A program made the translations under genes and the position numbers. From Filimonas lacunae (lineage in GTDB: Bacteria > Bacteroidota > Bacteroidia > Chitinophagales > Chitinophagaceae): a stretch of 64,000 nucleotides of DNA. The stretch covers positions 4,900,823-4,964,822 of the forward strand of contig NZ_AP017422.1 in assembly GCF_002355595.1 (NCBI RefSeq), read 5' to 3'. This document shows, one piece after another, positions 16,266-57,987 of the stretch (positions within the stretch are counted from its first letter, which is position 1; each line of letters starts with the position of its first letter). The notes below the pieces were generated by a model. The model was not told the origin of the DNA and ran no database searches. It saw nothing but the letters and a program-made list of their open reading frames with translations.

Positions 16266-16982
16266 TTGTTGGATATGAAAGATTATGTTGATAAAGCCAG
16301 AAAAGAACTACAACAACTGGCTGACGCTAAAACACTTGCTTCTGCACAAAAGTTCTTTAAGGAACCCATCCTCGCCTATGGCGTAAAAACGCCAGATGCA
16401 AGGGCCATCGCCAAAAGTCTCTGGAAAGAATGCAAACAGGAAACGAAGGCCACTATCTTTGGTTATTGTGAGCAGCTATGGCAGTCTGGCTATGTAGAAG
16501 AATCAGTGATTGCCTGCGAGTGGTCATACTCCTTACGCAAGCAGTTTGAAGCCAAAGACATGAAGGTTTTTGAAAAATGGATACAGCAGTATGTCAACAA
16601 CTGGTCTTCCTGCGACAACTTTTGCAATAACACCGTAGGTGCTTTACTAACACAATACCCCGAACACCTCTCCCTGCTTACTAAATGGGCCACTTCCTCC
16701 AACCGCTGGATGCGCAGGGCGGCAGCTGTATCGTTAATACTTCCAGCCCGGAATGGTTTGTTCCTCACCGAAGCCATTGACATTGCCACCCAGCAGCTGC
16801 ACGATACGGACGACCTGGTACAAAAAGGCTATGGCTGGTTGCTGAAGGTAGCCAGCAAACACCATGAGAAAGCAATTTTCCGGTTTATTATGACACATAA
16901 GCAGGAAATGCCACGCACCGCCCTGCGCTATGCGATAGAGCTAATGCCGGCTGAACTAAAAGCCAAAGCCATGAGCAGATAA
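16266..16982 (+). CDS. DNA alkylation repair enzyme (AlkD-like HEAT-repeat glycosylase family)
   Basis: 238 aa. The N-terminus ...KFFKEPILAYGVKTPDARAIAK... and the overall helical repeat pattern match the pfam08713-type DNA alkylation repair proteins. Confidence 0.65.
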   Translation: MLDMKDYVDKARKELQQLADAKTLASAQKFFKEPILAYGVKTPDARAIAKSLWKECKQETKATIFGYCEQLWQSGYVEESVIACEWSYSLRKQFEAKDMKVFEKWIQQYVNNWSSCDNFCNNTVGALLTQYPEHLSLLTKWATSSNRWMRRAAAVSLILPARNGLFLTEAIDIATQQLHDTDDLVQKGYGWLLKVASKHHEKAIFRFIMTHKQEMPRTALRYAIELMPAELKAKAMSR

Positions 16983-21447: not shown

Positions 21448-24309
21448 TTATAAAGACGAGCTTACTTTTTTCAACGGCGTTAACGTTACATTACCATTTA
21501 TTCCCGAAGGCAGTGGATTCCAGTTGATAGCCGTAAACAAGCCATCGCTGCCCCTGTTGGCTTTGTCGTGCGCCTGAAAGTTGGTGTTATAAAATATCCT
21601 GTAAGGTACCTGGTGTTTATCCATATCAATGATCCGGTTAGCCATCAGGTTGGCTACTTTTATTTCCAGCTGATTTTGCGGCTGCAAAGCAGTGGCAGGA
21701 ATATCGATAGAATAATCCGGCCCCAGTAAAGTAATCAGCTTCTTACCATTCAAATACACTTCCGCACTTCCATACACCTGGTCCAGGTGTAAACGCCAGG
21801 CTTCGGCGCTACCCTGCGGCGTTGCAAAACCGATCTGGTAAGCAGCGATACCCGAAAACGCTTTTACATCTTCGCCACCTAGTTCAGTCCACGAAACCAA
21901 CTTGTCTGTTGTAACAGGTTGTGGCAAAACAGGACCGCCTTCTTCAAAACGGATAGTCCACTTGCCTTTTATTGATACCCCTTGTCCTGCAGGCTGATAA
22001 TATACGTATGCAGCTCCCTGCTGTGCCTGTACATAAGTATGCAAAATGCAGCTTTCGCCGGGTTGCAGTTGCAGATATACCGCTGTTTGCCCGTCAGACT
22101 GTTGTTGTACAGCTGCCAGTCCCGCTTGCTTTTGCATAGGATCATATACCACTACAGATGCGGCATGGGTAGCCAGGCTCACCTGCTTTTCAATAGCCTT
22201 ATTGCCGGCATTGGTTACAAAATAGCAATAACCATCCTTATCCCTGCGGCGTACAAACTGTAAGCCTTCGTCTGTCATCACCTCCCGCTGAATGCCCGCT
22301 ACCTGTAATAAAGTAGTAATATCATCCGCCAACACTACTCTTCCCGTGCCTATGCTGGCCGTTTTAACACCATTGACATCTGCAAATTGCAGGGACGACT
22401 TTAAAGCAGCAAAGGTTTTGCGGCGCTCTTCCAATTGCCCCAGTCCCGGAACATCCACAGGCAGGTTTTTATATACCAGCACAGTTGCACCTTCTTTAGC
22501 CATGCTCACCACCTTATTCCATGTAGTCAGCGGCATGTAGCGGCAGTCGGGCAACACAATGGTTTTATAGGGCTGTTTGCCGGATAACAACTTAGCTCCT
22601 TCTGCCTTCATGGCAGCAATTTGTTTATCAGATATAAAATCGAATGTATACCCTTTGTTCAGCATCGTTTCAGATACACTGGCAAAGCCGGTTCCGTTAA
22701 AGTCGGGCTTCAAAGCATCGTAATGTTTCAGCAAAGCACTCCCGGGTTCGGCATAACTATCATATACCGGGTAATATATCAGCACATCATTATCCGGCGT
22801 ACCCTGTTGCAGGAAAGACTGGCAACGGGCAATGTATTCGTTTAAAGTGCTAAAGTGCTTCCAGAACGGATTGGTGGGCTGAAAATGCACAGCGGCATAA
22901 AACAACCATCCCGGCCAGGGCTCATCTTTGGGCGAATAACTGATACCATGATAAAAGACATGGTTTACACCCCCTACAAAGAATTTATCAATAGCTTGTT
23001 TTACATCTCCTAAAGAAGACAGAAAATGATCGTGCAGCCAGGTTGCCGATTCGGAAGAAGCCAATGGCTTACCGCTTACATGTGCTGCTGAAGTAGCAAA
23101 CTTAAAACGGAGCACATCATTTCCTTCTGTTTCCGGGATATCGATAGCAGCATACAAATCCAGGATGTTGGCTGGTGAGCCGTGCGACTGGTTACGGATC
23201 AACGCACCTTTGGCACTGCCCCAGACATGCCAGGGCCGGGTAAAATTATCCAGTAACAGTTCGGATATGGTTTCGCGGTAATCACACACTACCCGGCTAA
23301 CGGTTTCCTTATCCCCATCGCCAAACAAAGCAGGCAAAAAAAACCGGAGATCGTAACCACGGCGTTTGATAAACTCCGCAAAGAATGCCGGTGTAAAGTT
23401 GGATTGACCACGCGCATCATCCACCTCATAAGAATCGTTGAAAAAAGCGCGGATACCACTGAGATCATGCCCTTTAAAAGCGGAATCAAAATGTCCTAAA
23501 TAATGAGCAAGAGCTGTTTGAGAAAAGTGATCTATTACAAAGCCTTCCCCGCCAGGCGCTGCTCTTTCCACCATTTTACCATGATCGCCAAGAAACAACG
23601 CATATAAATGCCAGTCATTCCCCGCAGGCGCTGTCCAGTTTAAACGTCCATCCTTATCTACTTTATTGGTAAGATCCATTTTTTTGCCTTTACCGTTATA
23701 TGCCATCAGAATGGTCAATGGTAAATTCCTTTGAAACCGCAGCTGATCTAAAGCCATTACCTGCAGGTTAGCATTACTGCCATAAGGCTGTTTAATATCT
23801 TTAATATCCGGCGCTACGCCATCGGCACGCACCAGGGGCTGCTGCACAAACACTATCGGTTCATCCAGCTTAGCGCCCCCTTTCACTTCATACTTTTTCC
23901 AGAACAGCTCTTTACTGGCATCGTTATCCGACACCCAGGGCCCGCCAAATGGCCAACCTGTTGCATTGGCAACATCAATGCCCATATCCAGCCGTTTGCC
24001 CTCCTGCAAAGTATATTGCAGCATGTTTATCCACTGCGGGGAAAGAAACGGAATAAACTCCTTTTCGTGCCCCTTTACGCCATAGATAGGCGTTATTTCC
24101 AAACCTCCCAGACCTGCCTTGCTATAGGTTTCCATATTCCAGGAAAGATCCTTTTTATTCACCGCACTGCCTTCCCACCACCAACGGGTCCAAGGCTTAG
24201 CCTGCCTGGTTACTTCCGGCCAGTTCCACTGCGCGCCGCACTCTACAGCATACAGGGAAAGGGCAGCCAATGCCATCACTTTTAACTTGTTACTACGTGT
24301 ATGATACAT
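21448..24309 (-). CDS. Large secreted glycoside hydrolase (GH106-like 'glycosyl hydrolase' family)
   Basis: Signal peptide from the M at 24309 (an alternative upstream ATG is at 24357). The N-terminal KPWTRWWWEGSAV...GLGGLEI block is characteristic of this roughly 1000-aa Bacteroidota hydrolase family. 953-969 aa. Confidence 0.55.
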   Translation of the reverse strand: MYHTRSNKLKVMALAALSLYAVECGAQWNWPEVTRQAKPWTRWWWEGSAVNKKDLSWNMETYSKAGLGGLEITPIYGVKGHEKEFIPFLSPQWINMLQYTLQEGKRLDMGIDVANATGWPFGGPWVSDNDASKELFWKKYEVKGGAKLDEPIVFVQQPLVRADGVAPDIKDIKQPYGSNANLQVMALDQLRFQRNLPLTILMAYNGKGKKMDLTNKVDKDGRLNWTAPAGNDWHLYALFLGDHGKMVERAAPGGEGFVIDHFSQTALAHYLGHFDSAFKGHDLSGIRAFFNDSYEVDDARGQSNFTPAFFAEFIKRRGYDLRFFLPALFGDGDKETVSRVVCDYRETISELLLDNFTRPWHVWGSAKGALIRNQSHGSPANILDLYAAIDIPETEGNDVLRFKFATSAAHVSGKPLASSESATWLHDHFLSSLGDVKQAIDKFFVGGVNHVFYHGISYSPKDEPWPGWLFYAAVHFQPTNPFWKHFSTLNEYIARCQSFLQQGTPDNDVLIYYPVYDSYAEPGSALLKHYDALKPDFNGTGFASVSETMLNKGYTFDFISDKQIAAMKAEGAKLLSGKQPYKTIVLPDCRYMPLTTWNKVVSMAKEGATVLVYKNLPVDVPGLGQLEERRKTFAALKSSLQFADVNGVKTASIGTGRVVLADDITTLLQVAGIQREVMTDEGLQFVRRRDKDGYCYFVTNAGNKAIEKQVSLATHAASVVVYDPMQKQAGLAAVQQQSDGQTAVYLQLQPGESCILHTYVQAQQGAAYVYYQPAGQGVSIKGKWTIRFEEGGPVLPQPVTTDKLVSWTELGGEDVKAFSGIAAYQIGFATPQGSAEAWRLHLDQVYGSAEVYLNGKKLITLLGPDYSIDIPATALQPQNQLEIKVANLMANRIIDMDKHQVPYRIFYNTNFQAHDKANRGSDGLFTAINWNPLPSGINGNVTLTPLKKVSSSL

Positions 24310-24544
24310 ATTGCAAACAGCTTTTAAGCCAATAGATATACCTGGATAAACAGCCAACCGCCGGGAGATGCAAGCACTATATGCGTGATTTTATGAGCAA
24401 ACAATTATACTGTTGTCAGGCAGCAGCCAAGTTAGCGGACAGGCACACGACTTGCGTCCTGTGCTGTCCTGCATAAAACAGCCTTCGTTCATTTTACCTA
24501 AAATACTATATTTAACCACCTAAACTTTTAAAACCTGAACCATA

Positions 24545-25774
24545 ATGAATACATCAGTAATCGAAAACAAGATTTCTACCCACAAAAACGTGCTGGTTGT
24601 TTTACAGGAAGACAATACTCCCCCTGATGCCGAAAACCGCTATTTAATGGATCACTTTTGTGGAAAGGTAGTACACAGCTTTGCAGAGATACAGCCAACG
24701 CAGGAAAGAGTGTATGTATGTGGCAATATCAACGCTACACAAGAAACGCCCGGTGCCTTCTTTATTATCAAAGAGCTATCCACCAATTACGAAAGCTACC
24801 CTAACAACAACACCCGGCTCATCACACTAGGCGAAGTCCCTGTTGTTATCAGTAATGCCGGCGTATACTTTAGAAAGCTATTTACAGGCAACGACTATTT
24901 TCATAAAATAAAATCAGAGCACAACTTCCAGGAGCTCACAGAATCGAATAAACAATCCAAAGCTTTCCGCAAAGGCATCTACTTAACCAACATTACCAAA
25001 GAAGAAAAGGAAGATGGCAAAGAAGCGTTGCACTACCGCCTGTTAAGATGTTCCAGCAATTTAACCGGTCCTACAGATAACTTCCGTACTACCGACCGCG
25101 AAATTATACACCTGCTGAATGATGCCGCAAAATATGTTTTTGAGTACCCGACAGATCTCAATCACGTACTGGCACAGATATATGAAAACAAGAAGAGAAC
25201 AGATGGCAGCGAGAAAGAAGATAAAGCCAGGATTAAAGCGCATTCCGATAAAACGAAAGACATGCCCCAGGAAGGCCTGATTGCTTTTTGCACTTTTTAT
25301 GAAAACGCAGATGCCAGTCACCTGAAGCCCTCCGCTACCGACAGGTATGATGTATGCTTTAAAGATGTGAGCGGCTTAACAAAGCTGCACTTTAAATTAA
25401 AAAGCACCGTGGAAGATGCGTCTTTAGAAAAAGAATTCAGTGTTACCTTATACCCTGATTCTGCTTTCATTATCCCGCTTTCTACCAATAGATTATACAC
25501 GCATGAAATCAGGCCATCCATGCTCAACGCCGACCGTATGCCTACCAGGCTGGGCTATGTGGTTCGTTGCTCTAATGTAGAAGCCCGGTATATCGATGAC
25601 CAGGCCTATCTATTTGAAAACGGGCAGCTTATTCAACTGGAGCCCATCACCACAGAAACCCACCAGGAATTGAAGGGTGTTTACTACAAAGAAAACATAT
25701 CAGAGAAAATAGTGCAATACGGCAAAGTGCATTTTAGCATGAATACAGGCGATTACGAAAAACCTATTTACTAA
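24545..25774 (+). CDS. 2OG-Fe(II) dioxygenase-fold protein (AlkB-like C-domain) with a ~230-aa N-terminal extension of unknown function
   Basis: The C-terminal half carries HSD...(GLIAFCTFYENAD)...LYTHEI...RLGYVVRCS, which is HxD...H...R spacing. It aligns with the downstream paralog (FCTFYENAD versus FSCYENPD). GC is about 35-40%. Confidence 0.5.
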   Translation: MNTSVIENKISTHKNVLVVLQEDNTPPDAENRYLMDHFCGKVVHSFAEIQPTQERVYVCGNINATQETPGAFFIIKELSTNYESYPNNNTRLITLGEVPVVISNAGVYFRKLFTGNDYFHKIKSEHNFQELTESNKQSKAFRKGIYLTNITKEEKEDGKEALHYRLLRCSSNLTGPTDNFRTTDREIIHLLNDAAKYVFEYPTDLNHVLAQIYENKKRTDGSEKEDKARIKAHSDKTKDMPQEGLIAFCTFYENADASHLKPSATDRYDVCFKDVSGLTKLHFKLKSTVEDASLEKEFSVTLYPDSAFIIPLSTNRLYTHEIRPSMLNADRMPTRLGYVVRCSNVEARYIDDQAYLFENGQLIQLEPITTETHQELKGVYYKENISEKIVQYGKVHFSMNTGDYEKPIY

Positions 25775-25785
25775 ACCTATTCCGG

Positions 25786-26580
25786 ATGAGTAATACCGCA
25801 TTTCATAAAATCACACTGAATTTTCCGCATAACTTATTTTCCGAATTGGCGGGCTCAACAACGTTTGAGCCCGTTATAAAAGGCCGCACCGGCAATCACC
25901 TGGTAAAGCCAGAGGATAAAGGTATACCCATAGTACGCACCACTACCCGGTACCATATACCTGCTAACACCTTCTCTGCCACGCACCAGCGCATTGCAGA
26001 CAGAATCTATGCTACTATCCGTAATAACAACCCGGCCAACATTCCTGCCCTGCATTTTAACAATGCCCTCATAGAAGTGTATGATGCAGTATATGCCAAA
26101 ATGAATTTTCATTCCGATCAAAACCTGGATCTGGCCAATGATTCTTACATAGGCCTGTTCTCCTGTTATGAAAATCCGGATACACTTACCGAACAGCATA
26201 TCCGAAAACTAAAGATCAAAAACAAAGTAACGGATGAAGAGCATGAGCATTCTTTAACCCAGCATTCGGTTATCCTGTTTTCATTAGCCACCAACACGCA
26301 ATTCCTGCATAAAATTGTATTGAATGTGCTCCCGAATGCAAAACCACTGGCTACAGACAATAAATGGCTGGGCATCACTTTTCGCACCTCAAAAACCTAT
26401 ATTCAGTTTAAGGATAACCAACCCTATTTTAGCACCGGGCAACCACTCACAATAGCGAACGAAGAACAGGCTACCGAGTTCTTCAAACTGAGAGGACAAG
26501 AGAACAGAAATGTAGATTTTGAATACCCTGAACTTACTTATACTATCAATCCGGCAGATACCATGATGCCGAAATCATAG
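25786..26580 (+). CDS. AlkB-like 2OG-Fe(II) dioxygenase
   Basis: MNFHSDQNLDLANDSYIGLFSC (HxD), FLHKIVLNVLP (second His) and WLGITFRTSK (compare AlkB NLTFRQ, the 2OG-binding Arg) at AlkB-like spacing; 264 aa. Confidence 0.55.
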   Translation: MSNTAFHKITLNFPHNLFSELAGSTTFEPVIKGRTGNHLVKPEDKGIPIVRTTTRYHIPANTFSATHQRIADRIYATIRNNNPANIPALHFNNALIEVYDAVYAKMNFHSDQNLDLANDSYIGLFSCYENPDTLTEQHIRKLKIKNKVTDEEHEHSLTQHSVILFSLATNTQFLHKIVLNVLPNAKPLATDNKWLGITFRTSKTYIQFKDNQPYFSTGQPLTIANEEQATEFFKLRGQENRNVDFEYPELTYTINPADTMMPKS

Positions 26581-26665: not shown

Positions 26666-27406
26666 CTATAACATCAGCTTATCTAATACATAGGCATCAA
26701 CCCATGCTGGAATATTATTATCGATCACTTCTATAGTAGTTCCATTTACAATCTCCAGCACCAGTCGATAGTGATCATCTGAGTTATCTATCACAAAACA
26801 TCTATAGCAGTAAGGAATCATTGATGATAACAATGTCATAGAACGAACATAGCGATCTCTGATTTTCTGCTCACTTACTGGATGACCTCCTTTGTTAACA
26901 CGAGCTGCAACTCTTGCTACATTGATATCTGCTGACTCAGTGGAGATAAAATAAAGATAATTTTTAAAGCCTGACTTAGCGGAGCGCTGAAGCATCTCGA
27001 GCTTAGATTCATGAGACATCACAGTTTCGAATGAGAAGGTTTCACCCTGATCTAATAACAGGTTTCTAAGGAAGTCAGCTATAAGCGCAGCAGCATAGGA
27101 ATTAGCCTGCTGATCAACCTTTATAACATTGTTGGAAAATGATATACCTATTTGCAATCCTTCATTTTCCGCCTTAGCCAATAGTGTAGAATGTTGTAAA
27201 AAAGCAGCGAAAGCAGGAGCCGTAGATGCTAAACCATAATCTCCCAGGTTAATAAATCCTTTGTCACGGCAAGCTTTTTCAATATCGTCAGCATTGACAT
27301 ATGCCCCAGTGGCTACAAGTTTCTGAATTTCTTTAATAATGGTGCTTTTGCCTGAGCCATTGGGGCCTGCAAAAACACGCATTCTCCGGCTAGCCTTTTT
27401 TGACAT
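26666..27406 (-). CDS. Zeta-toxin / AAA_33-like P-loop kinase (toxin-like component)
   Basis: The Walker A motif FAGPNGSGKST at the N-terminus, the ~246-aa size and the fold pattern match the zeta-toxin family. Confidence 0.6.
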   Translation of the reverse strand: MSKKASRRMRVFAGPNGSGKSTIIKEIQKLVATGAYVNADDIEKACRDKGFINLGDYGLASTAPAFAAFLQHSTLLAKAENEGLQIGISFSNNVIKVDQQANSYAAALIADFLRNLLLDQGETFSFETVMSHESKLEMLQRSAKSGFKNYLYFISTESADINVARVAARVNKGGHPVSEQKIRDRYVRSMTLLSSMIPYCYRCFVIDNSDDHYRLVLEIVNGTTIEVIDNNIPAWVDAYVLDKLML

Positions 27407-27725
27407 GCAATACAGTTCCTTTAGTGAAGACTCTCTTATTGATTGCGGTGGTATGTTGTTCTATTTTGCTAAGTCTTTCCACATCGCCATTACTATTCTT
27501 TTGAACTACCCATCCATCCTCCGCCACAACAATTGGTATATTCAAAGCTTTATTTTCGTTAATAGCATTTGCAGCAGCACTGCGTGCTATTTCTGTAAAA
27601 AACTGTTTGTCATGTTTGTCTTCCACTTCACTTAAAGAAGAGTAACGTGATTCCAACCGGCGATAAAACATTCCGGTACTTGATATTCTAAGTTTAGTTC
27701 CTTTCTTTCTTTTCGGATTTGCCAT
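27390..27725 (-). CDS. Small basic protein translationally coupled to the zeta-like kinase (putative antitoxin/partner)
   Basis: 111-aa ORF whose stop overlaps the kinase start by 17 bp, the typical type II toxin-antitoxin arrangement. Confidence 0.45.
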   Translation of the reverse strand: MANPKRKKGTKLRISSTGMFYRRLESRYSSLSEVEDKHDKQFFTEIARSAAANAINENKALNIPIVVAEDGWVVQKNSNGDVERLSKIEQHTTAINKRVFTKGTVLHVKKG

Positions 27726-27877: not shown

Positions 27878-27878
27878 G

Positions 27879-27952
27879 CGGACCGGACGGGACTCGAACC
27901 CGCGACCTCCGCCGTGACAGGGCGGCATTCTAACCAACTGAACTACCGATCC
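27879..27952 (-). tRNA. tRNA-Asp (anticodon GTC)
   Basis: The reverse complement reads GGATCGGTAGTTCAGTTGGTTAGAATGCCGCCCTGTCACGGCGGAGGTCGCGGGTTCGAGTCCCGTCCGGTCCG. The GGATCGG/CCGGTCC acceptor stem, D-loop, CTGTCAC anticodon loop and GGTTCGAGTCC T-loop are all present, with G as discriminator. CCA is not encoded. Confidence 0.85.
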
Positions 27953-50104: not shown

Positions 50105-53100
50105 TTAACGCAGTAAGGTTACAGAACCCTGCCTGTGAATAACACGTCCATCTCTGTCAACACCTTCTGCCACCCATACATAAGTAGCCAATGGTTGTAA
50201 CTCGCCGTTAACATAACCATCCCAGCCATTGGCGGCATCACTGGTTTCAAACACCTTTTTACCCCAGCGGTTAAACACGCGGAAGTAGTTCAGCTTTTCC
50301 ACGCCTCTCAGGTTAGGCAGCAACTTATCGTTCTGGCCATCCCCGTTAGGCGTAAACACGTTTGGCACCAGTATGTCGTTACTAATCAGCACCTGCACCA
50401 GCAGGGTATCGGTAGTAACACAGCCCGATGGGAAGGTCATGGCTATTTCATACGTCTGGCTATTGTTTAGGGTAACCGTTGGGTTATAAACAGTAGCAGC
50501 AGACAAGCCGGTAGCAGGCGTCCAGCTGTAAGCAGCAGTAGTATAATTACGACATGTTATTGCCAACGGCTGGCCATTGGATGCAAAGGCTGTATTTAAC
50601 CTTACGGCTGGCACAGGCGCTTCTACAGTAATAGCATGGGTTACTGTAGAGTCTAACACAGGACACTCTAACAAGCTCACCTTTAATACAACATTATACG
50701 TACCGGCAGCAGCATAAGTAAACTCCGGAGCAGCCACAGTGCTGGTTTGTCCGTTGCCACTTTCCCAGTTGTAATGTACCGTAGCACTGTTGTCTACAGC
50801 AGAGCTGTTGGTAAAGGACACCGGTACATCTTTACAATAGCTGTCGAAGCTAAATGCCGGCTGTGGGGCAAGCAGTTGTGTTACTGCCAGGTTATTGCCT
50901 GCCATAGCACTACAACCATAGGTATCGGTAGCTTTAGCGGCGTAGGTACCCGGCGCATTAGCCGTCAGTGCCCCCGTGGTGTTACCAGCCACAGTCGCAT
51001 TATTGTAATACCATTCAAACGTATAAGTTCCGGAAGCCTGTAATGGCAGCTGCTTACCTGTGCCACACAATATCAATCCCTGGCTGGCCGATAAAGTACT
51101 CACCGGCAGCGGCGTTACGGTTAACTGACCATTTACATAAGTAAATACATAATCAGCAGCAGCAGCACCGGAAGGCACAATTACATAATCCCCTGCGGCC
51201 GACTGTGCAGTAGCAGCAGAAGCAGCTGTTGGCTGTGCCGTTAACACGGTAACAGACTCGCTGTTTACCCAACCACTATAGCTAAAGGCATAGTCGGGAT
51301 TCGCCACGCCATAACAACGATTGGTATCCTTAGCCGTAATAGTTACCGTAGCTGGTTGAATGGTGAGGGCACCATTTACAAAGCTGATAGTATAGTTATC
51401 AGAAGTAACACCACCCGGGGTAATTACATACTGGTTTACATGCGCTGCTCCCTGCGAAGTACCAGTGTACACCATTGTGCCACCCAACACTCCCGGTTGT
51501 TCATTACTTACCAGGCCACTATAGGTAACGCCATTACCGCCATTGAAGGCTGTGCCATCGTAGGTTTTAGTACTGTCTTTAGCCGTAATGGTTAAGGCAG
51601 CTTTATCTATGGTAAGCGCACCATCCACATACGTGATAGCATAGTTACCCGAAGTAACACCACTGGCAGTGATGCTATAAGAACCCGCATCGGCAGCACC
51701 TTGTGCAGTGCCGCTGTAAGCAATATTACCCGACAACACAGCTGCATCTTCATCAGGTACAAAACCACTGTAAGTAACGCCATTGCCGCCACTAAAGGTA
51801 GTAGCGTCGTAGGTTTTGGCACTGTCAGTAGCTGTAATAGTTAAAGCTGCCTGGTTAATTTGTAAAGCACCGCTGGTATAGCTTACAGCATAGTTATCTG
51901 CTGTTAAACCACCCGGGGTTATTATATATATATTAGCATCTTTAGCGCCCTGTGAGGTGCCACTATAAGCCAGTGTACCGGTTAAAGCAGCAGTGGAATC
52001 TTCATTATTTACAAAACCACTGTAAGTAACACCATTGCCACCGCTAAAGGCAGTGCCATCGTAGGTTTTGGTGCTATCGGCAGCAGTTACGATTAAAGCC
52101 GCTTTATCAATAGTTAAAGCGCCATTGGCATAGCTGATGGTATAGTTATCAGCAGATAAGCCACCCGGCGTAATAACATAGGTATCGGCTTTGGTAGCGC
52201 CTTGTGCGCTGCCGCTATAAGCCAGCGTACCGGTTAAAGCAGCAGTAGAATCATCCCCTGTTACAAAACCAGTATAGCTAACACCATTACCACCACCAAA
52301 GGCCACACCGTCATATGTTTTGGCGCTATCCTTCGCAGTTACGGTTAAAGCAGCTTTGTCAATGGTTAAGCTACCATTAGCATAGCTGATGGTATAGTTA
52401 ACAGCCGTTAAACCACCCGGTGTAATAACATAGGTATTCGCATCTTTAGCTCCCTGAGAAGTACCACTATAGGTTACTGTACCGGTTAAGGCTGCCGTAG
52501 AATCATCACCTGTTACAAAACCGGCATATTCCAAACCATTACCATCGTTGAAGGCGGTACCATCGTAAGTTTTAGTACTGTCTTTTGCTGTGATGGTTAA
52601 TGCGGCTTTATCAATGGTTAAAGTACCATTGGTATAGCTGATAGCGTAGTTGCCCGCAGATAAACCACCCGGAGTAATGATATAGCTATCGGCATTAACA
52701 GCCCCTTGCGAGGTTCCACTGTAAATTACTGTTCCGGTTAACACAGCAGTGGAATCTTCTCCGTTTACAAAACCATTGTAAGTAACACCATTGCCACCGT
52801 TAAACGCAGTACCATCATAAACCCGGGTACTATCAGTAGCAGTGACGGTTAACGCAGCTTTATCAATAGTTAAAGCACCGTTTACATAGTTAATAGTATA
52901 GTTACCGGCAGATAAACCACCCGGTGTGATCATATAAGCATTGGCATCAACAGCTCCTTGCGAAGTACCCGTGTAAGTGAGGTTACCGGTTAAAGCAGCA
53001 GTAGAATCGTCTCCTGTTACAAAACCAGTATAGCTAACACCATTACCACCGCCAAAGGCCACACCGTCATAGGTTTTAGTGCTATCCTTGGCAGTTACAG

Positions 53101-56100
53101 TTAAAGCAGCTTTGTTTATAATTAAGCTACCATTAGCATAAGTGATAGTATAGTTGGCAGCCGATAATCCGGCAGGTGTAATTATATAAGTATTTACATT
53201 CTTAGCCCCCTGCGAAGTACCGCTATACGTTACCGTTCCGGTTAAAGCGGCAGTAGAATCATCCCCCGTTGCAAAACCGGTATAAGTTAATCCATTACCA
53301 CCGGTGTACCCTGTACCATCATAGGTTTTAGTGGTGTCTTTAGCAGCTACTGTTAAAGCAGCTTTGCTAATGGTTAAGGTTCCATCGGCGTAAGTAATAG
53401 CATAGTTATCAGCAGATAAACCACCCGGCGTAATAGCATAGGTGTTTACATTTTTAGCACCCTGTGAGGTGCCGGCATAAGTTACTGCGCCTGTTAAAGC
53501 CGCAGTGGAGTCATCGCCGTTTACAAAGCCGCTGTAAGCAATACCATTGCCACCGCCAAAACCTGTGCCACTGTAAACAACCGTACTGTCTTTAGCCGTA
53601 ACGGTTAAGGCAGCTTTGTTAATAGTTAAAGCAAACAGCACATTAGTTGCCGGTGCATAAGTAGCATCGCCCGCCTGACTCATGGTAATGTTTACTACAC
53701 CCGCTTTCTTTGCTTTTATTTTCCAGCTATTATTATCAGCAGCATCCTGGAACACTTCTGCAATAGTGTTATCTGCCGAACTCAAAGCAACCGTTAAGCC
53801 TGAACTGGCAGCAAAGGCCCTGGTAAACACATCACCATATACTACAGTAGTATCAGTCAATGCAGTAATGGTTTGAGATGCTAACTGCAATTCATAAGCG
53901 CCCTGGTCAATAGCAGCTCCCATAAAACGGGCATTGCCGGCCAGATCTGTAGTAATAGTATCATTTGCATGGTAAATGCTATCATATCCTGCATTTATAG
54001 CCGGACTGACAGATTGTAAACTATAGTTACCACCTACAAATGGTGCTGAAGTAAAAGCATTGCTACTTACAAATAACGGATCTATGTCCGTGATATGATT
54101 AGCAGCATCAGCTGTGGCCTCCTGAATGGTGCTGTACATAGCATTATAGGTTCCTGAAATACCAGCACCATTACCATATATGATACTATTGAGCACAGAA
54201 ACCGGAGAAGATCCTGCATTAAGAATAGCCGTTTTATTATTACCGCTGATGGTACTGTTAATTACCTTCAATGTACCATTAGCTATGCGAATAATACCAT
54301 AATCGGTAGTAGCAGTATTGTAGTTGCCGGTTATCTGTGTATTCAGGAACACCACATTAGAGCCAGCGCTATTCAAATAGCCTACAGCAATGTAAGTACC
54401 GGCAACACAACCTTTTATAGTACAGTTTTCGAACAGAACATTTGCGTTACTGGCAGTACTGAAAGCTCCACCCATTGCAAGACAAGTGTCTCTTAAAAAT
54501 TCACATTTATAAAAGGTAAGTTTAGAAGCGATGCCGCTGGCATAGAAAGCGCCCCCCAGTGTAGTGGCTTTGTTATCGTTAAAAGAGGATTGCTGAAAAT
54601 AAGCAATTGCATTGTCTCCACAATAGAGCGCTCCTGCAGCTACTGATGAAGTGTTGTTATTAAAAGACGATTGGCGGCAATAAACGGTAGCTGCTGTGGT
54701 AAAGTAAAACATACCACCGATGGCACTCGCCGACCCTGAAATGGAATTATAGCTGCCGGTACAATTTTCCAGTTGCACAGTAGCATAAGTAGCATACATA
54801 CCTGCGCCATATACCAGGCCCGAATTATTAGTAATATTCACACGCCGGAATGTGGCATTTGCCATTACATCACCCGATCCTGCATACACTGCTGCCCCTG
54901 CTCCTCTATTGTTATAATTATTGGTAAGCACCATATCTTCAATTAAAAGCGCAGCGCTTCTTACTGTTATCCCACCACCAAATTCAAGATTAGAATTCAC
55001 CCCGTTTACCACAACGTTACCTGAAATCTCAGCATAGGCTCCTGAAATGGTAAAGCCACTGATTAAAGCCTGGCCCATTTCACCAGCTGCTATTACTACA
55101 CGATAAGTGTTATCTGACCTGGTTCCTGCTGTACCTATATCGCCACTTAAAATAGTAGTATTAGTAGTAAAGTTACGGCCGGTAGTATCCGTTTCGTTCC
55201 CGGCAAAGCCACCATAGATTTTGGTATCTTTTACCAGCACAAAAGAGTTATAACGGTTTGTATTGGTATTTGCCCCACCAGTAGCATCGTTAGCAGGATA
55301 AGCAGGATAATAAGTTCCCTTAGCCACCCATATTTGCTTTACTTTACCTGCAGCAACAGCATTCATAATAGCAGTCTCTTTTAAAGCATCTGCCACCTCT
55401 CCCACTGCGTTAGCCCAACTGCTACCATTACCGGTACCGCCTTTTTTCACAAAAAGAACTCCGTTAGCATCGGTAGCAAGTGAAATCACCAATTTTCCAT
55501 TGGCGTAAGTAATAGTATAGTTATCTGCCAATAAACCGGCAGGCGTATTAGTATAGGTTCCCCTACTGATAGCCCCCTGCGCAGTACCGCTGTAAGTAAG
55601 CGCCCCTGTTAAGGCGGAAGTAGAATCATCCCCATTTACAAAACCGCTGTAGATAGCACCATTACCACCGCTAAAAGCAGCACCGGTATAAGCGATCACG
55701 CTATCTTTAGCCGTAACTGTTAAAGCAGCTTTATTGACAGTAACAGCAAACACCACATCTGGCGCTGCTGCATTATAATAACTATTGCCTGCCTGACTGG
55801 CTGTAATGTTTACAGCACCGGCACCTTTTATTTTTAATTTCCATTTATTACCATCTGCTGCATCCTGATAAGGCTGGGCTATAGCATTATTAGCAGAACT
55901 ATAGCTTACCGTTAAACCAGAAGTGGCTGTACCAGTTAATACCATAGCAGCATCACCATAAGTAGCTGTAATATCTGCTATGGCATTGATGGTTTGGGCC
56001 TGCTTCACAAACTGCAATTCATATGCACCTAAATCTATAGAATCTTTAGAAATACGTGGCTGGCCATCCAGATCCACCGCAGTAGCACCACTTACCTGGT

Positions 56101-57895
56101 TATATAAATACAACGCACCAGTATCTCTGACAGGACTGCTGTTCTGCAAACGATAATCGCCATTGGTAAACGGTGCATTAATATAAGCCACCGGGCTTAC
56201 AAACGACGGATCCTTGTTTATCACATGGCTGGCTGCATCCTCTGTTGCATCCTGTAGCAAAGACCAGGTAGTGCTTCCCGAAAAAGCTACTCCCGTACTA
56301 TTTCCATACACAATACAGTTTTGCAGTGTTTGCGGAGAAGTGCTGGATATAGCTCCCCATACTGTACCCGTGGCAATAACCTTGTTGCCACAGATGGTTA
56401 CATTGGTAAATTTGCAGGGATTTGACGCTGCACAAAGAACACCTCCACCATCGCTGGCAGCTGCATTACCGGCAATAAGCACATTCGCAGCTGATATCCC
56501 CTCCGAAGTATATAATCCACCACCAGTAGTAGCAGCATAACAACCCATGATAGAATCACTGATAAACGTAGTTGTACCGCTGTTATACACCCCACCACCG
56601 TATGCAGCAGAATCTCTCAGGAAAGAACAATGGGTAACAGACAAAGCAATACTTGAAAACAAGCCCCCTCCCATGTTCCCTGCTTTATTATCCCAGAACC
56701 GGCAACTATCTAATGTACTAGCTGCCTGGGTAAAATATCCGCCGCCGCCATTTCCATTAACGCTATTCGTACTTTTATTGTTGAGAATTGTACAATTTTT
56801 GAAAGTAGAAGTTGCCTGAGAATACACGCCACCACCAAAATTGAGCGAAGTATTTCCTTCCAGCACACTGTTTTTCAAAGTCAGTATACCATTATTAGCC
56901 TGCATAATCGCACCACCAATACTGGTAGCTGTATTGTTCTTAAAAATAGAATTAGACAATACAGAATTAGCAGTAATAGTATATAAACCACCACCGCCAG
57001 TTGCTGTATTATTATGAATATTCAAATCATGAAATGCAGCTGTAACAGTTACTATATACAATCCTCCACCCTGATAAGCAGCGTTACTATATAGTTCGCT
57101 ATTGCTTAACACAGGCGTACCCGTTCCAGCTACACGTATCCCACCTCCCATGGAGGTGGAAGTATTAGTAGTAGTACTAACATTGTTATCTACTACTATA
57201 TTGGTAAGCACCGGCGAAGAAGCACCTTCTATAGTAACACCACCGCCACCTGCATAAGCTGTGTTGCCCGTAACACGAACATTGGTAACATAAGGAGAAG
57301 CATTCATAATATACAATCCTCCGCCGCGGTTGATAGCAACACTCACTCCGTTTACTACTCTGGAACTGGTTGCAGTAGACGTATAACCACCTGTAATAGT
57401 AAAACCGTTTAACAATACCTGCCCCGATAAATTACTGGCAATTACTACATGGTACGCATTGTCTGTAGCCGTACCCGCCACATTAAGGTCGCCACTTAAT
57501 ATACTGGCATTGGCCGTATTGGTTAAATCGCGGGCAGCCGTGTCTGTTTCAGTTCCCGCAAAACCGCCATATACCTTTACATTATCCAGCAATACAAACG
57601 AATTGGTTACATCGGTAGTAGTAGCTGCACCAGCTGATCCGTCATACTGCGCATACAAAGGATAATACGTACCTGCCGCTACCCATATTTGTTTTACGGT
57701 TCCTGGAGTACTGTTTAAGGAAGTGCCATCTTTTAAAGCCTTGGCCATTTCGCCCAATGCATTGGCCCAGCTGCTGCCGTTACCGGTGCTGCCTTTTTTT
57801 ACATACAATATGCCATTGGCATCGGGTGTTGTTTGTGCCTGCGCCCAACCCAGGGTTAGGATACACAACAGGGAAAACAGGATAATCTTTTTCAT
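50105..57895 (-). CDS. Giant T9SS type-B cargo / adhesin-like protein with right-handed beta-helix modules, tandem MBG-like repeats and a gliding-motility-associated C-terminal (CHU_C) sorting domain
   Basis: Signal peptide from M at 57895 (MKKIILFSLLCILTLGWAQAQ); the longest ORF starts at 57919. Gly/Asn/Thr-rich parallel beta-helix repeats. About 10 tandem copies of (K/Q)AALTVTAKDSTKTYDG...YTGFVxGDDSTAALTG. The C-terminus VFTPNGDGQNDKL...FNRWGKKVFE...GWDG is the type-B T9SS sorting domain. Confidence 0.8.
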   Translation of the reverse strand: MKKIILFSLLCILTLGWAQAQTTPDANGILYVKKGSTGNGSSWANALGEMAKALKDGTSLNSTPGTVKQIWVAAGTYYPLYAQYDGSAGAATTTDVTNSFVLLDNVKVYGGFAGTETDTAARDLTNTANASILSGDLNVAGTATDNAYHVVIASNLSGQVLLNGFTITGGYTSTATSSRVVNGVSVAINRGGGLYIMNASPYVTNVRVTGNTAYAGGGGVTIEGASSPVLTNIVVDNNVSTTTNTSTSMGGGIRVAGTGTPVLSNSELYSNAAYQGGGLYIVTVTAAFHDLNIHNNTATGGGGLYTITANSVLSNSIFKNNTATSIGGAIMQANNGILTLKNSVLEGNTSLNFGGGVYSQATSTFKNCTILNNKSTNSVNGNGGGGYFTQAASTLDSCRFWDNKAGNMGGGLFSSIALSVTHCSFLRDSAAYGGGVYNSGTTTFISDSIMGCYAATTGGGLYTSEGISAANVLIAGNAAASDGGGVLCAASNPCKFTNVTICGNKVIATGTVWGAISSTSPQTLQNCIVYGNSTGVAFSGSTTWSLLQDATEDAASHVINKDPSFVSPVAYINAPFTNGDYRLQNSSPVRDTGALYLYNQVSGATAVDLDGQPRISKDSIDLGAYELQFVKQAQTINAIADITATYGDAAMVLTGTATSGLTVSYSSANNAIAQPYQDAADGNKWKLKIKGAGAVNITASQAGNSYYNAAAPDVVFAVTVNKAALTVTAKDSVIAYTGAAFSGGNGAIYSGFVNGDDSTSALTGALTYSGTAQGAISRGTYTNTPAGLLADNYTITYANGKLVISLATDANGVLFVKKGGTGNGSSWANAVGEVADALKETAIMNAVAAGKVKQIWVAKGTYYPAYPANDATGGANTNTNRYNSFVLVKDTKIYGGFAGNETDTTGRNFTTNTTILSGDIGTAGTRSDNTYRVVIAAGEMGQALISGFTISGAYAEISGNVVVNGVNSNLEFGGGITVRSAALLIEDMVLTNNYNNRGAGAAVYAGSGDVMANATFRRVNITNNSGLVYGAGMYATYATVQLENCTGSYNSISGSASAIGGMFYFTTAATVYCRQSSFNNNTSSVAAGALYCGDNAIAYFQQSSFNDNKATTLGGAFYASGIASKLTFYKCEFLRDTCLAMGGAFSTASNANVLFENCTIKGCVAGTYIAVGYLNSAGSNVVFLNTQITGNYNTATTDYGIIRIANGTLKVINSTISGNNKTAILNAGSSPVSVLNSIIYGNGAGISGTYNAMYSTIQEATADAANHITDIDPLFVSSNAFTSAPFVGGNYSLQSVSPAINAGYDSIYHANDTITTDLAGNARFMGAAIDQGAYELQLASQTITALTDTTVVYGDVFTRAFAASSGLTVALSSADNTIAEVFQDAADNNSWKIKAKKAGVVNITMSQAGDATYAPATNVLFALTINKAALTVTAKDSTVVYSGTGFGGGNGIAYSGFVNGDDSTAALTGAVTYAGTSQGAKNVNTYAITPGGLSADNYAITYADGTLTISKAALTVAAKDTTKTYDGTGYTGGNGLTYTGFATGDDSTAALTGTVTYSGTSQGAKNVNTYIITPAGLSAANYTITYANGSLIINKAALTVTAKDSTKTYDGVAFGGGNGVSYTGFVTGDDSTAALTGNLTYTGTSQGAVDANAYMITPGGLSAGNYTINYVNGALTIDKAALTVTATDSTRVYDGTAFNGGNGVTYNGFVNGEDSTAVLTGTVIYSGTSQGAVNADSYIITPGGLSAGNYAISYTNGTLTIDKAALTITAKDSTKTYDGTAFNDGNGLEYAGFVTGDDSTAALTGTVTYSGTSQGAKDANTYVITPGGLTAVNYTISYANGSLTIDKAALTVTAKDSAKTYDGVAFGGGNGVSYTGFVTGDDSTAALTGTLAYSGSAQGATKADTYVITPGGLSADNYTISYANGALTIDKAALIVTAADSTKTYDGTAFSGGNGVTYSGFVNNEDSTAALTGTLAYSGTSQGAKDANIYIITPGGLTADNYAVSYTSGALQINQAALTITATDSAKTYDATTFSGGNGVTYSGFVPDEDAAVLSGNIAYSGTAQGAADAGSYSITASGVTSGNYAITYVDGALTIDKAALTITAKDSTKTYDGTAFNGGNGVTYSGLVSNEQPGVLGGTMVYTGTSQGAAHVNQYVITPGGVTSDNYTISFVNGALTIQPATVTITAKDTNRCYGVANPDYAFSYSGWVNSESVTVLTAQPTAASAATAQSAAGDYVIVPSGAAAADYVFTYVNGQLTVTPLPVSTLSASQGLILCGTGKQLPLQASGTYTFEWYYNNATVAGNTTGALTANAPGTYAAKATDTYGCSAMAGNNLAVTQLLAPQPAFSFDSYCKDVPVSFTNSSAVDNSATVHYNWESGNGQTSTVAAPEFTYAAAGTYNVVLKVSLLECPVLDSTVTHAITVEAPVPAVRLNTAFASNGQPLAITCRNYTTAAYSWTPATGLSAATVYNPTVTLNNSQTYEIAMTFPSGCVTTDTLLVQVLISNDILVPNVFTPNGDGQNDKLLPNLRGVEKLNYFRVFNRWGKKVFETSDAANGWDGYVNGELQPLATYVWVAEGVDRDGRVIHRQGSVTLLR
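51340..53650. repeat. In-frame tandem DNA repeats (~252-bp period, ~9-10 copies) encoding MBG-like ~84-aa domains within the giant gene
   Basis: The motif gttaaagcagctttatcaatggttaaagcacc recurs at ~51591, 51838, 52093, 52338, 52596, 52846, 53101, 53352 and 53606. An outlying copy is at 55717. Confidence 0.6.
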
Positions 57896-57987
57896 CTTAG
57901 AAAAGGAGGTTATTTCCATGATTGAATACAGGAAACTGCTGCCACTTTTTTACAGTGGTGCAGTAGATATAAAAATGTATAGAGGGA

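Follow-up and report, generated by a model that had tools for sequence, protein, structure and literature searches.

Two anciently diverged AlkB-clade dioxygenase paralogues encoded side by side in Filimonas lacunae, most likely as subunits of one enzyme

The 64,000-nucleotide (nt) stretch of the Filimonas lacunae (Chitinophagaceae) genome analyzed here, referred to as the window, covers positions 4,900,823–4,964,822 of contig NZ_AP017422.1 (assembly GCF_002355595.1), and all feature coordinates are window positions. It carries two adjacent genes on the forward strand, called A and B throughout, whose protein products are 100% identical to SAMN05421788_103318 and SAMN05421788_103319; A is annotated only as a 'hypothetical protein'. 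A first-pass annotation made from the DNA letters had described the two as paralogous AlkB-like dioxygenases, dependent on Fe(II) and 2-oxoglutarate (2OG) and separated by 11 base pairs (bp), and the exact open reading frames (ORFs) at 24545–25774 and 25786–26580 agree with that layout. We read the locus as an operon for two anciently diverged AlkB-clade Fe(II)/2OG paralogues, most likely forming one heteromeric enzyme, whose likeliest target would be a nucleic-acid base. As a whole, this reading is somewhat better than an even bet; its first part, a heteromeric AlkB-clade oxygenase, is held with high confidence, and a nucleic-acid substrate has roughly even odds. The layout of the locus is as follows.

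24358..24544, forward strand: intergenic region 5' of A, common to the divergent alpha-L-rhamnosidase gene and presumed to be the promoter region of the A-B operon.
24545..25774, forward strand: gene A, 409 residues, with an N-terminal domain of ~100 residues, a predicted AlkB-clade dioxygenase core, and a conserved C-terminal helix and tail.
24545..24847, forward strand: the A-specific N-terminal alpha/beta domain as predicted, residues 1–101, with the boundary set by hhalign and no counterpart in B.
25775..25785, forward strand: the A-B spacer, 11 bp, ACCTATTCCGG.
25786..26580, forward strand: gene B, 264 residues, a predicted AlkB-clade dioxygenase paralogue without the N-terminal domain and with the same C-terminal helix and tail as A.

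A and B are homologous to each other well beyond chance, as had been proposed from the resemblance of CTFYENADA in A to FSCYENPD in B, both of which were located as quoted. BLASTP aligns the two proteins across their C-terminal 180 residues with an E value of 4e-8 and 25% identity, and profile–profile comparison with hhalign covers 250 columns (probability 96%, E 3.4e-9), placing B residues 1–262 on A residues 102–407. Because all of B finds a counterpart in this alignment, with its first residue falling on residue 102 of A, the extra domain of A spans approximately residues 1–100, and the N-terminal domain of ~230 residues originally ascribed to A was an overestimate. A conserved C-terminal helix and tail are likewise common to both proteins (Y380, N384, Y392, N400 and D403 in A; E239, N240, Y247, T253 and D258 in B). 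Orthologues are 57–73% identical across phyla and 45–60% identical from bacteria to algae and giant viruses. Since A and B retain only 25% identity while their orthologues keep 57–73% across phyla, the duplication is old, and constraint on each of the copies has been strong.

The N-terminal domain of A is predicted to be of the beta-alpha-beta type, with a predicted local distance difference test score (pLDDT) of mostly 77–93. In distant relatives, F38 and G40 are its only invariant residues, and Y57, G60, P99 and G106 are near-invariant. The comparison of 26 diverse N-domain sequences with Pfam, and of their profile with PDB sequences, yielded no recurring or significant match, and the domain is missing from two fusion proteins in which B precedes A. 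As it lacks conserved polar residues, this domain more probably serves structure or docking than catalysis.

The assignment of both proteins to the AlkB clade comes mainly from structure. PF13532 (2OG-FeII_Oxy_2, AlkB-like), which has a gathering cut-off of 31.2 bits, scores 28.5 bits on B, just below that threshold, and is passed by the B parts of some relatives (42.6 and 47.2 bits); A has no Pfam match, PF13532 included. Neither NCBIfam nor PHROGs gave a meaningful match for A or B, and no AlkB-family chain was found when A, B and the family profiles were compared with all PDB chains by phmmer and profile searches. Alignment of the A and B profiles by hhalign with single, approximate AlkB and FTO sequences gave nothing usable, and no similarity of the profiles to that FTO sequence was detected. 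The AlkB relationship is therefore visible by fold comparison only and not by sequence search of the PDB. Models predicted from the family alignments are good for B (pLDDT 92.3) and moderate for A (pLDDT 72.8, predicted template-modelling score 0.81), and both show a double-stranded beta-helix with an AlkB-type N-terminal extension, the nucleotide-recognition lid region. In the fold search, AlkB, ALKBH2 and ALKBH3 are the best structural match for A and B alike, and the alignments to nucleic-acid dioxygenases reach past the jelly-roll core, with 170–212 aligned residues. The first-pass annotation had made its proposal depend on a match to the double-stranded beta-helix, and this fold was found for both proteins. 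Structure prediction and fold search, the near-threshold PF13532 score of B, and the invariant metal ligands together support the view that A and B are both AlkB-clade double-stranded beta-helix proteins, in line with the AlkB-like identity first proposed. Membership of the AlkB clade is thus indicated by the predicted fold and the ligands, with the Pfam cut-off missed by A and B.

The catalytic residues were assessed in an alignment of 130 A cores and 40 diverse B sequences, fusions included, drawn from bacteria, giant viruses and eukaryotes. They map to the window as follows.

25241..25249, forward strand: A H233-S-D235, the putative proximal iron ligands (HxD), invariant in the 130 A cores.
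25502..25504, forward strand: A H320, the putative distal iron ligand, invariant; a low-scoring hhalign match to an approximate AlkB query sets it on AlkB H187.
25547..25573, forward strand: A R335-LGYVV-R341-C-S343, a full AlkB-type RxxxxxR pair, with R335, G337, R341 and S343 invariant.
26110..26118, forward strand: B H109-S-D111, the putative proximal iron ligands, invariant in the 40 B sequences.
26308..26310, forward strand: B H175, the putative distal iron ligand, invariant in the 40 B sequences.
26365..26391, forward strand: B W194-LGITF-R200-T-S202, with an invariant Trp in place of the first arginine of RxxxxxR.

The motifs quoted in the first-pass annotation all stand at the expected residues (KAHSDKTKDM, LYTHEI and RLGYVVRCS in A; NFHSDQN, FLHKIVLNV and WLGITFRTS in B). 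The invariant set comprises H233, D235, H320, R335, G337, R341 and S343 in the A cores, and H109, D111, H175, W194, G196, R200 and S202 in the B sequences. A tyrosine of the first core strand, near-invariant in A (Y213) and invariant in B (Y99), is presumably the AlkB-subfamily tyrosine, to judge by motif and position. In AlkB, His131, Asp133 and His187 hold the iron, and Arg204 forms a salt bridge with the C5 carboxylate of 2OG (PMC7467159). The AlkB subfamily is distinguished by a pair of arginines on its C-terminal strand (PMC3175000), and the roles of the AlkB pair R204 and R210, six residues apart, in binding the 2OG carboxylates have been described (PMC7467159, PMC3175000). The corresponding positions are R335 and R341 in A and W194 and R200 in B, hhalign pairing RLGYVVRCS of A with WLGITFRTS of B. 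The claim that both proteins carry an HxD...H...R triad with AlkB spacing thus holds for the metal triad of A and B and for the RxxxxxR pair of A; B lacks that pair. Among the B parts of distant representatives, 22 of 25 have the W..R form and none of the 25 has the R..R form. Because a Trp replaces the arginine that binds the 2OG C5 carboxylate, B appears from its sequence to keep the metal site with a non-canonical cosubstrate pocket. Other basic residues of B are candidates for compensating the lost arginine, namely R140, conserved in at least 93% of sequences, and the invariant R34 and R51.

These residues suggest a division of labor between the two proteins. A would supply the full catalytic set (H233, D235, H320, R335 and R341) together with its ~100-residue N-terminal alpha/beta domain. 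B, which keeps the metal triad H109, D111 and H175 and also R200, could be an auxiliary or substrate-presenting subunit, or could bind a cosubstrate in a non-canonical manner, as W194 stands where AlkB has its C5-carboxylate arginine.

The strongest indication that A and B work together is their linkage. The first search returned 2710 A homologues, and an exhaustive search gave 551 clusters at 50% identity. A genome scan limited to one genome per species identified 80 loci, nearly all in Bacteroidota, plus Nostoc and Calothrix. In 76 of the 80, A is directly followed by B in the same orientation, and 4–43 nt separate the end of the A match from the start of the B match; the remaining four include one contig that ends right after A and one locus with an insertion between A and B. 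The genes that flank the pair vary between genera. A and B are also adjacent in Actinomycetota (Embleya, Nonomuraea) and on giant-virus contigs from IMG/VR, where they are arranged tail-to-tail in convergent orientation. In addition, the two proteins occur as a single chain: among 152 classified representatives, about 24 are A-B fusions and about nine are B-A fusions, both orders being represented in algae and giant viruses. Named examples of fusions are those of Ochromonas sp. CCMP1393 (a transcriptome record) and Chromera velia (A0A0G4I9I8), and one B-A fusion has FNIP-repeat, kinase and RING genes as its neighbors, a context typical of giant viruses. The B-A order is not a read-through artefact, because the bacterial operon runs A then B. 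From the fusion in both orders and the near-universal adjacency, a Rosetta-stone type of evidence, we infer that A and B act as a physical complex. The heteromer suggested in the first-pass annotation thereby gains strong independent support, the genomic context of homologues being one of the checks it had called for.

The same evidence bears on a simpler explanation, namely that a tandem duplication produced two independent AlkB-type repair enzymes that form no complex, each acting alone on its own substrates as ALKBH2 and ALKBH3 do. The metal triad is kept in both proteins, and there is precedent for two or three separate AlkBs in one bacterium (PMC2790896). However, the pair is almost never split in the 80 loci, in Actinomycetota or in giant viruses; fusions of either order occur in many lineages; B is devoid of the canonical 2OG C5-binding arginine; and the duplication is ancient, yet both copies are kept together everywhere. 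A and B also show no sequence resemblance to the canonical bacterial AlkB groups. We consider two independent enzymes distinctly improbable.

The phyletic spread of the pair is patchy, which implies that the two genes have moved laterally as a module in the course of evolution. An apparent betaproteobacterial occurrence (L064, JASGCW010000056.1, a metagenome-assembled genome labelled 'Limnohabitans') was rejected as a probable case of mis-binning: its A is 58% identical to that of the window, and the flanks encode low-GC secreted proteins with Bacteroidota-style C-terminal sorting tails. In Nonomuraea gerenzanensis (L085, 6848–8772), the A frame continues for ~130 aberrant residues and B lies in an overlapping frame; this overrun reflects a frameshift or pseudogene, unless it results from miscalled ORFs in DNA of 71% GC. 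Three eukaryotic A-B fusions (P0273, P0289 and P0349) have a hydrophobic start that resembles a transmembrane segment and long low-complexity inserts, which suggests that these fusions may be membrane-anchored or targeted to an organelle.

To our knowledge, none of the AlkB-family enzymes characterised so far, E. coli AlkB, human FTO and ALKBH5 among them, functions together with a paralogous subunit. AlkB, ALKBH2 and ALKBH3 have in common with A and B the HxD...H triad and the tyrosine of the first core strand, and with A the RxxxxxR pair, but they are single proteins of ~200 residues, whereas A and B are two paralogues that are obligately paired or fused. A differs further from AlkB in its extra N-terminal domain, and B in the Trp that replaces the 2OG C5-binding Arg; the conserved C-terminal helix and tail of both have not been noted in AlkB. 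The canonical bacterial AlkB groups 1A, 1B, 2A and 2B were described by van den Born in 2009 (PMC2790896). Their members are single proteins of ~200–220 residues with E. coli AlkB-like sequences, in contrast to the 409 residues of A and the 264 of B, and no sequence-level relation to them was found. FTO, an AlkB-clade RNA demethylase acting on N6-methyladenosine (m6A) and its 2'-O-methylated form (m6Am), also has an extra domain, but that domain is a C-terminal helical bundle, whereas the one of A is N-terminal and alpha/beta; nor is FTO known to need a paralogous partner, unlike the paired A and B.

The nearest analogues of the paired architecture are Tpa1 and OGFOD1. Both appear in the fold-search lists for A and B; each contains two tandem jelly-roll domains in one chain, one of them degenerate, that act as a unit, and in this respect they resemble the A-B fusions. 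TlxI-TlxJ (PDB 7vbq), a heterodimer of Fe(II)/2OG dioxygenases, is an architectural analogue of A-B. METTL3-METTL14 is an obligate dimer of ancient paralogues in which one partner has a compromised cofactor site and serves substrate binding (PMC4738411); as these are methyltransferases and A-B are oxygenases, the analogy is conceptual only. Literature searches found no paper describing the A-B pair, which is probably an uncharacterised two-subunit oxygenase. The paired form is unusual in that one subunit lacks the cosubstrate arginine, the putative catalytic subunit carries an N-terminal domain, and identity stays high between bacteria, algae and giant viruses. If true, the heteromeric reading would extend an intensively studied enzyme class by a new architecture and, probably, by a new substrate or reaction.

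What the enzyme acts on is suggested by a single recurring neighbor. Across genera, the only gene found repeatedly beside the pair encodes an endonuclease V of 167–179 residues (214 residues as called in one locus), whose PF04493 score of 31.4 bits exceeds the cut-off of 23.4. Its residues D6, E52, D74 and K106 are invariant in 26 sequences and were equated by motif with the catalytic D-E-D-K. The alignment to Bacillus subtilis endonuclease V (3ga2) is weak (E 0.32, residues 42–108 only), as is that to the mammalian enzyme. This gene adjoins A-B on the same strand and is presumably co-transcribed with it in 26 of the 80 loci, distributed over many branches of the A tree. It lies downstream in 24 of these, and in 16 of the 24 its ATG and the B stop codon overlap by 4 nt; in two Flavobacterium loci it lies upstream of A instead, still adjacent. 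The adjacency is the only hint of a nucleic-acid substrate. The window itself contains no endonuclease V gene. A dedicated partnership with A-B was considered and rejected: the neighbor is an ordinary Bacteroidota endonuclease V, with 2349 homologues under the NCBI name 'endonuclease V'. Two metagenomic loci have their endonuclease V gene away from A-B and directly 5' of it a gene of 159 residues with no Pfam hit on record (L090, 3520–3999; L091, 3550–4029), which overlaps the endonuclease V gene in one of the two; its product may be a further conserved partner of this short Bacteroidota enzyme.

If the substrate is a nucleic acid, the reaction would most likely be of the AlkB type, a base substituent being removed oxidatively or hydroxylated in the course of damage repair or demodification. 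Several observations weigh against this part of our interpretation. The link with endonuclease V is one-sided and partial: the gene is missing from 54 of the 80 loci and from all loci outside Bacteroidota, the cyanobacterial, actinobacterial and viral ones included, and in a reciprocal test A-B stands beside only one of six independently sampled endonuclease V loci, leaving five without it. A and B are acidic, with median isoelectric points of 5.7 and 5.9, and Pfam scans of A, B and their relatives revealed no recognisable nucleic-acid-binding domain, nor any fusion to one; the extra regions of the longer relatives contained no informative Pfam domains. The hydrophobic, membrane-anchor-like start of several eukaryotic fusions would be unexpected in a repair enzyme. 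Flavobacterium johnsoniae has three canonical AlkBs (PMC2790896), which would make a classical AlkB role superfluous there. Proteins are also acted on or bound by some members of the AlkB clade, such as Ofd2, which interacts with histones (PMC3175000). A caveat on the reading as a whole is that the model of A is of moderate confidence (pLDDT 72.8).

Most of these points speak for a rival reading, in which the heteromeric A-B enzyme hydroxylates or demethylates a protein or small-molecule substrate and its linkage with endonuclease V is historical rather than functional. We regard such a substrate as possible but rather doubtful, since three features of the data speak for nucleic acids: nucleic-acid dioxygenases are the best structural matches over those 170–212 residues and beyond the jelly-roll core; the adjacency of endonuclease V, with its 4-nt overlap, holds in distant genera despite differing flanks; and it survives the shift to the upstream side of A in two loci.

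A more elaborate version of our preferred reading, in which A-B is a heteromeric oxygenase acting on a nucleic-acid base, takes the linkage with endonuclease V at face value. A-B would then be the first obligate heteromeric AlkB-type oxygenase, with A as the 2OG-using catalyst and B as a metal-binding subunit in which Trp closes the 2OG site, and together with endonuclease V it would make up an 'oxidise, then nick' pathway. B would recognise the substrate or carry out a second, 2OG-independent oxidation; the target would be a specific purine adduct or modification; and gene transfer would account for the presence of the pathway in Bacteroidota, other bacteria, algae and giant viruses. We view this combination of claims as a long shot.

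A different role had been put forward in the first-pass annotation, which placed the pair in a horizontally acquired mobile islet and proposed that it encodes a demethylase or hydroxylase of nucleic acids with a part in defence or counter-defence, understood here as directed against phages. The patchy distribution over Bacteroidota, Cyanobacteria, Actinomycetota, giant viruses and algae would fit such a history, as would the presence of a toxin-antitoxin-like gene pair and a tRNA-Asp gene just downstream in the window. However, the low GC content on which the islet was based, about 35–40% against ~50% in the flanks, was wrong: GC is 42.4% in A, 42.5% in B, 43.9% in the window and 44.0 ± 3.2% as the mean of 32 genes, so that the base composition of A-B is ordinary for the window. 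Lower GC (37.5–39.5%) is limited to the next two genes downstream (26666–27725). No integrase-like Pfam match was found among the window neighbors examined, and the 3' end of the tRNA-Asp gene has no second copy in the window; because this end occurs only once, there is no sign of an integrated element. A tRNA lies within 2 kb of A-B in five of the 80 related loci, and a genomic island was rejected in view of the ordinary GC, the missing attachment-like tRNA-Asp repeat and this inconsistent tRNA adjacency. PADLOC returned no match for B and only a chance-level Cas8c match for A (E 0.007, 13 bits), and no homologue of A-B was found in 50,697 phage records. In the 80 loci, no defence gene recurs beside the pair; the neighbors are housekeeping or lineage-specific genes, and the toxin-like neighbor of the window is not conserved beside A-B elsewhere. 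Neither the mobile islet nor the defence role thus finds support, and we judge the two together to be very improbable.

The remaining features of the locus concern its surroundings. In the intergenic region 5' of A, a TATATTTA stretch ~30 nt before the ATG is similar to the -7 element of Bacteroidota, TAnnTTTG, and no Rfam element or riboswitch was found 5' of A-B in the window or in eight related loci. The divergent gene on the other side of this region (21448–24357, reverse strand) encodes an alpha-L-rhamnosidase of 969 residues (NF049897, E 3e-276, 918.9 bits against a model cut-off of 1300). This ordinary gene for polysaccharide degradation accounts for the higher GC noticed in the first-pass annotation.

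Downstream, a two-gene unit on the reverse strand (26666–27725) converges on B and has the lowest GC near A-B. It comprises an ORF of 111 residues (27390–27725) that overlaps by 17 nt the gene for a P-loop protein of 246 residues (26666–27406), the latter with a sub-threshold Zeta_toxin match (E 3e-4) and a PADLOC mad3 match (E 8e-7). The unit is a candidate toxin-antitoxin or defence ATPase module. Beyond it lies the gene for tRNA-Asp(GTC) (27878–27952, reverse strand), and a terminator-like hairpin with a 12-bp stem (27877–27850) stands immediately 3' of this tRNA gene. Two Pedobacter loci have a tRNA-Lys gene (L042, 10627–10700; L051, 10172–10245) directly 3' of the A-B unit, with or without endonuclease V, which recalls the tRNA-Asp near the pair in the window. 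Further away in the window, an AlkD-type 'DNA alkylation repair enzyme' (PF08713, E 4e-64) is encoded at 16266–16982 on the forward strand, ~8 kb upstream of A-B, not adjacent to the pair and with no evident link to it. A very large ORF of 2604 residues occupies 50105–57919 on the reverse strand.

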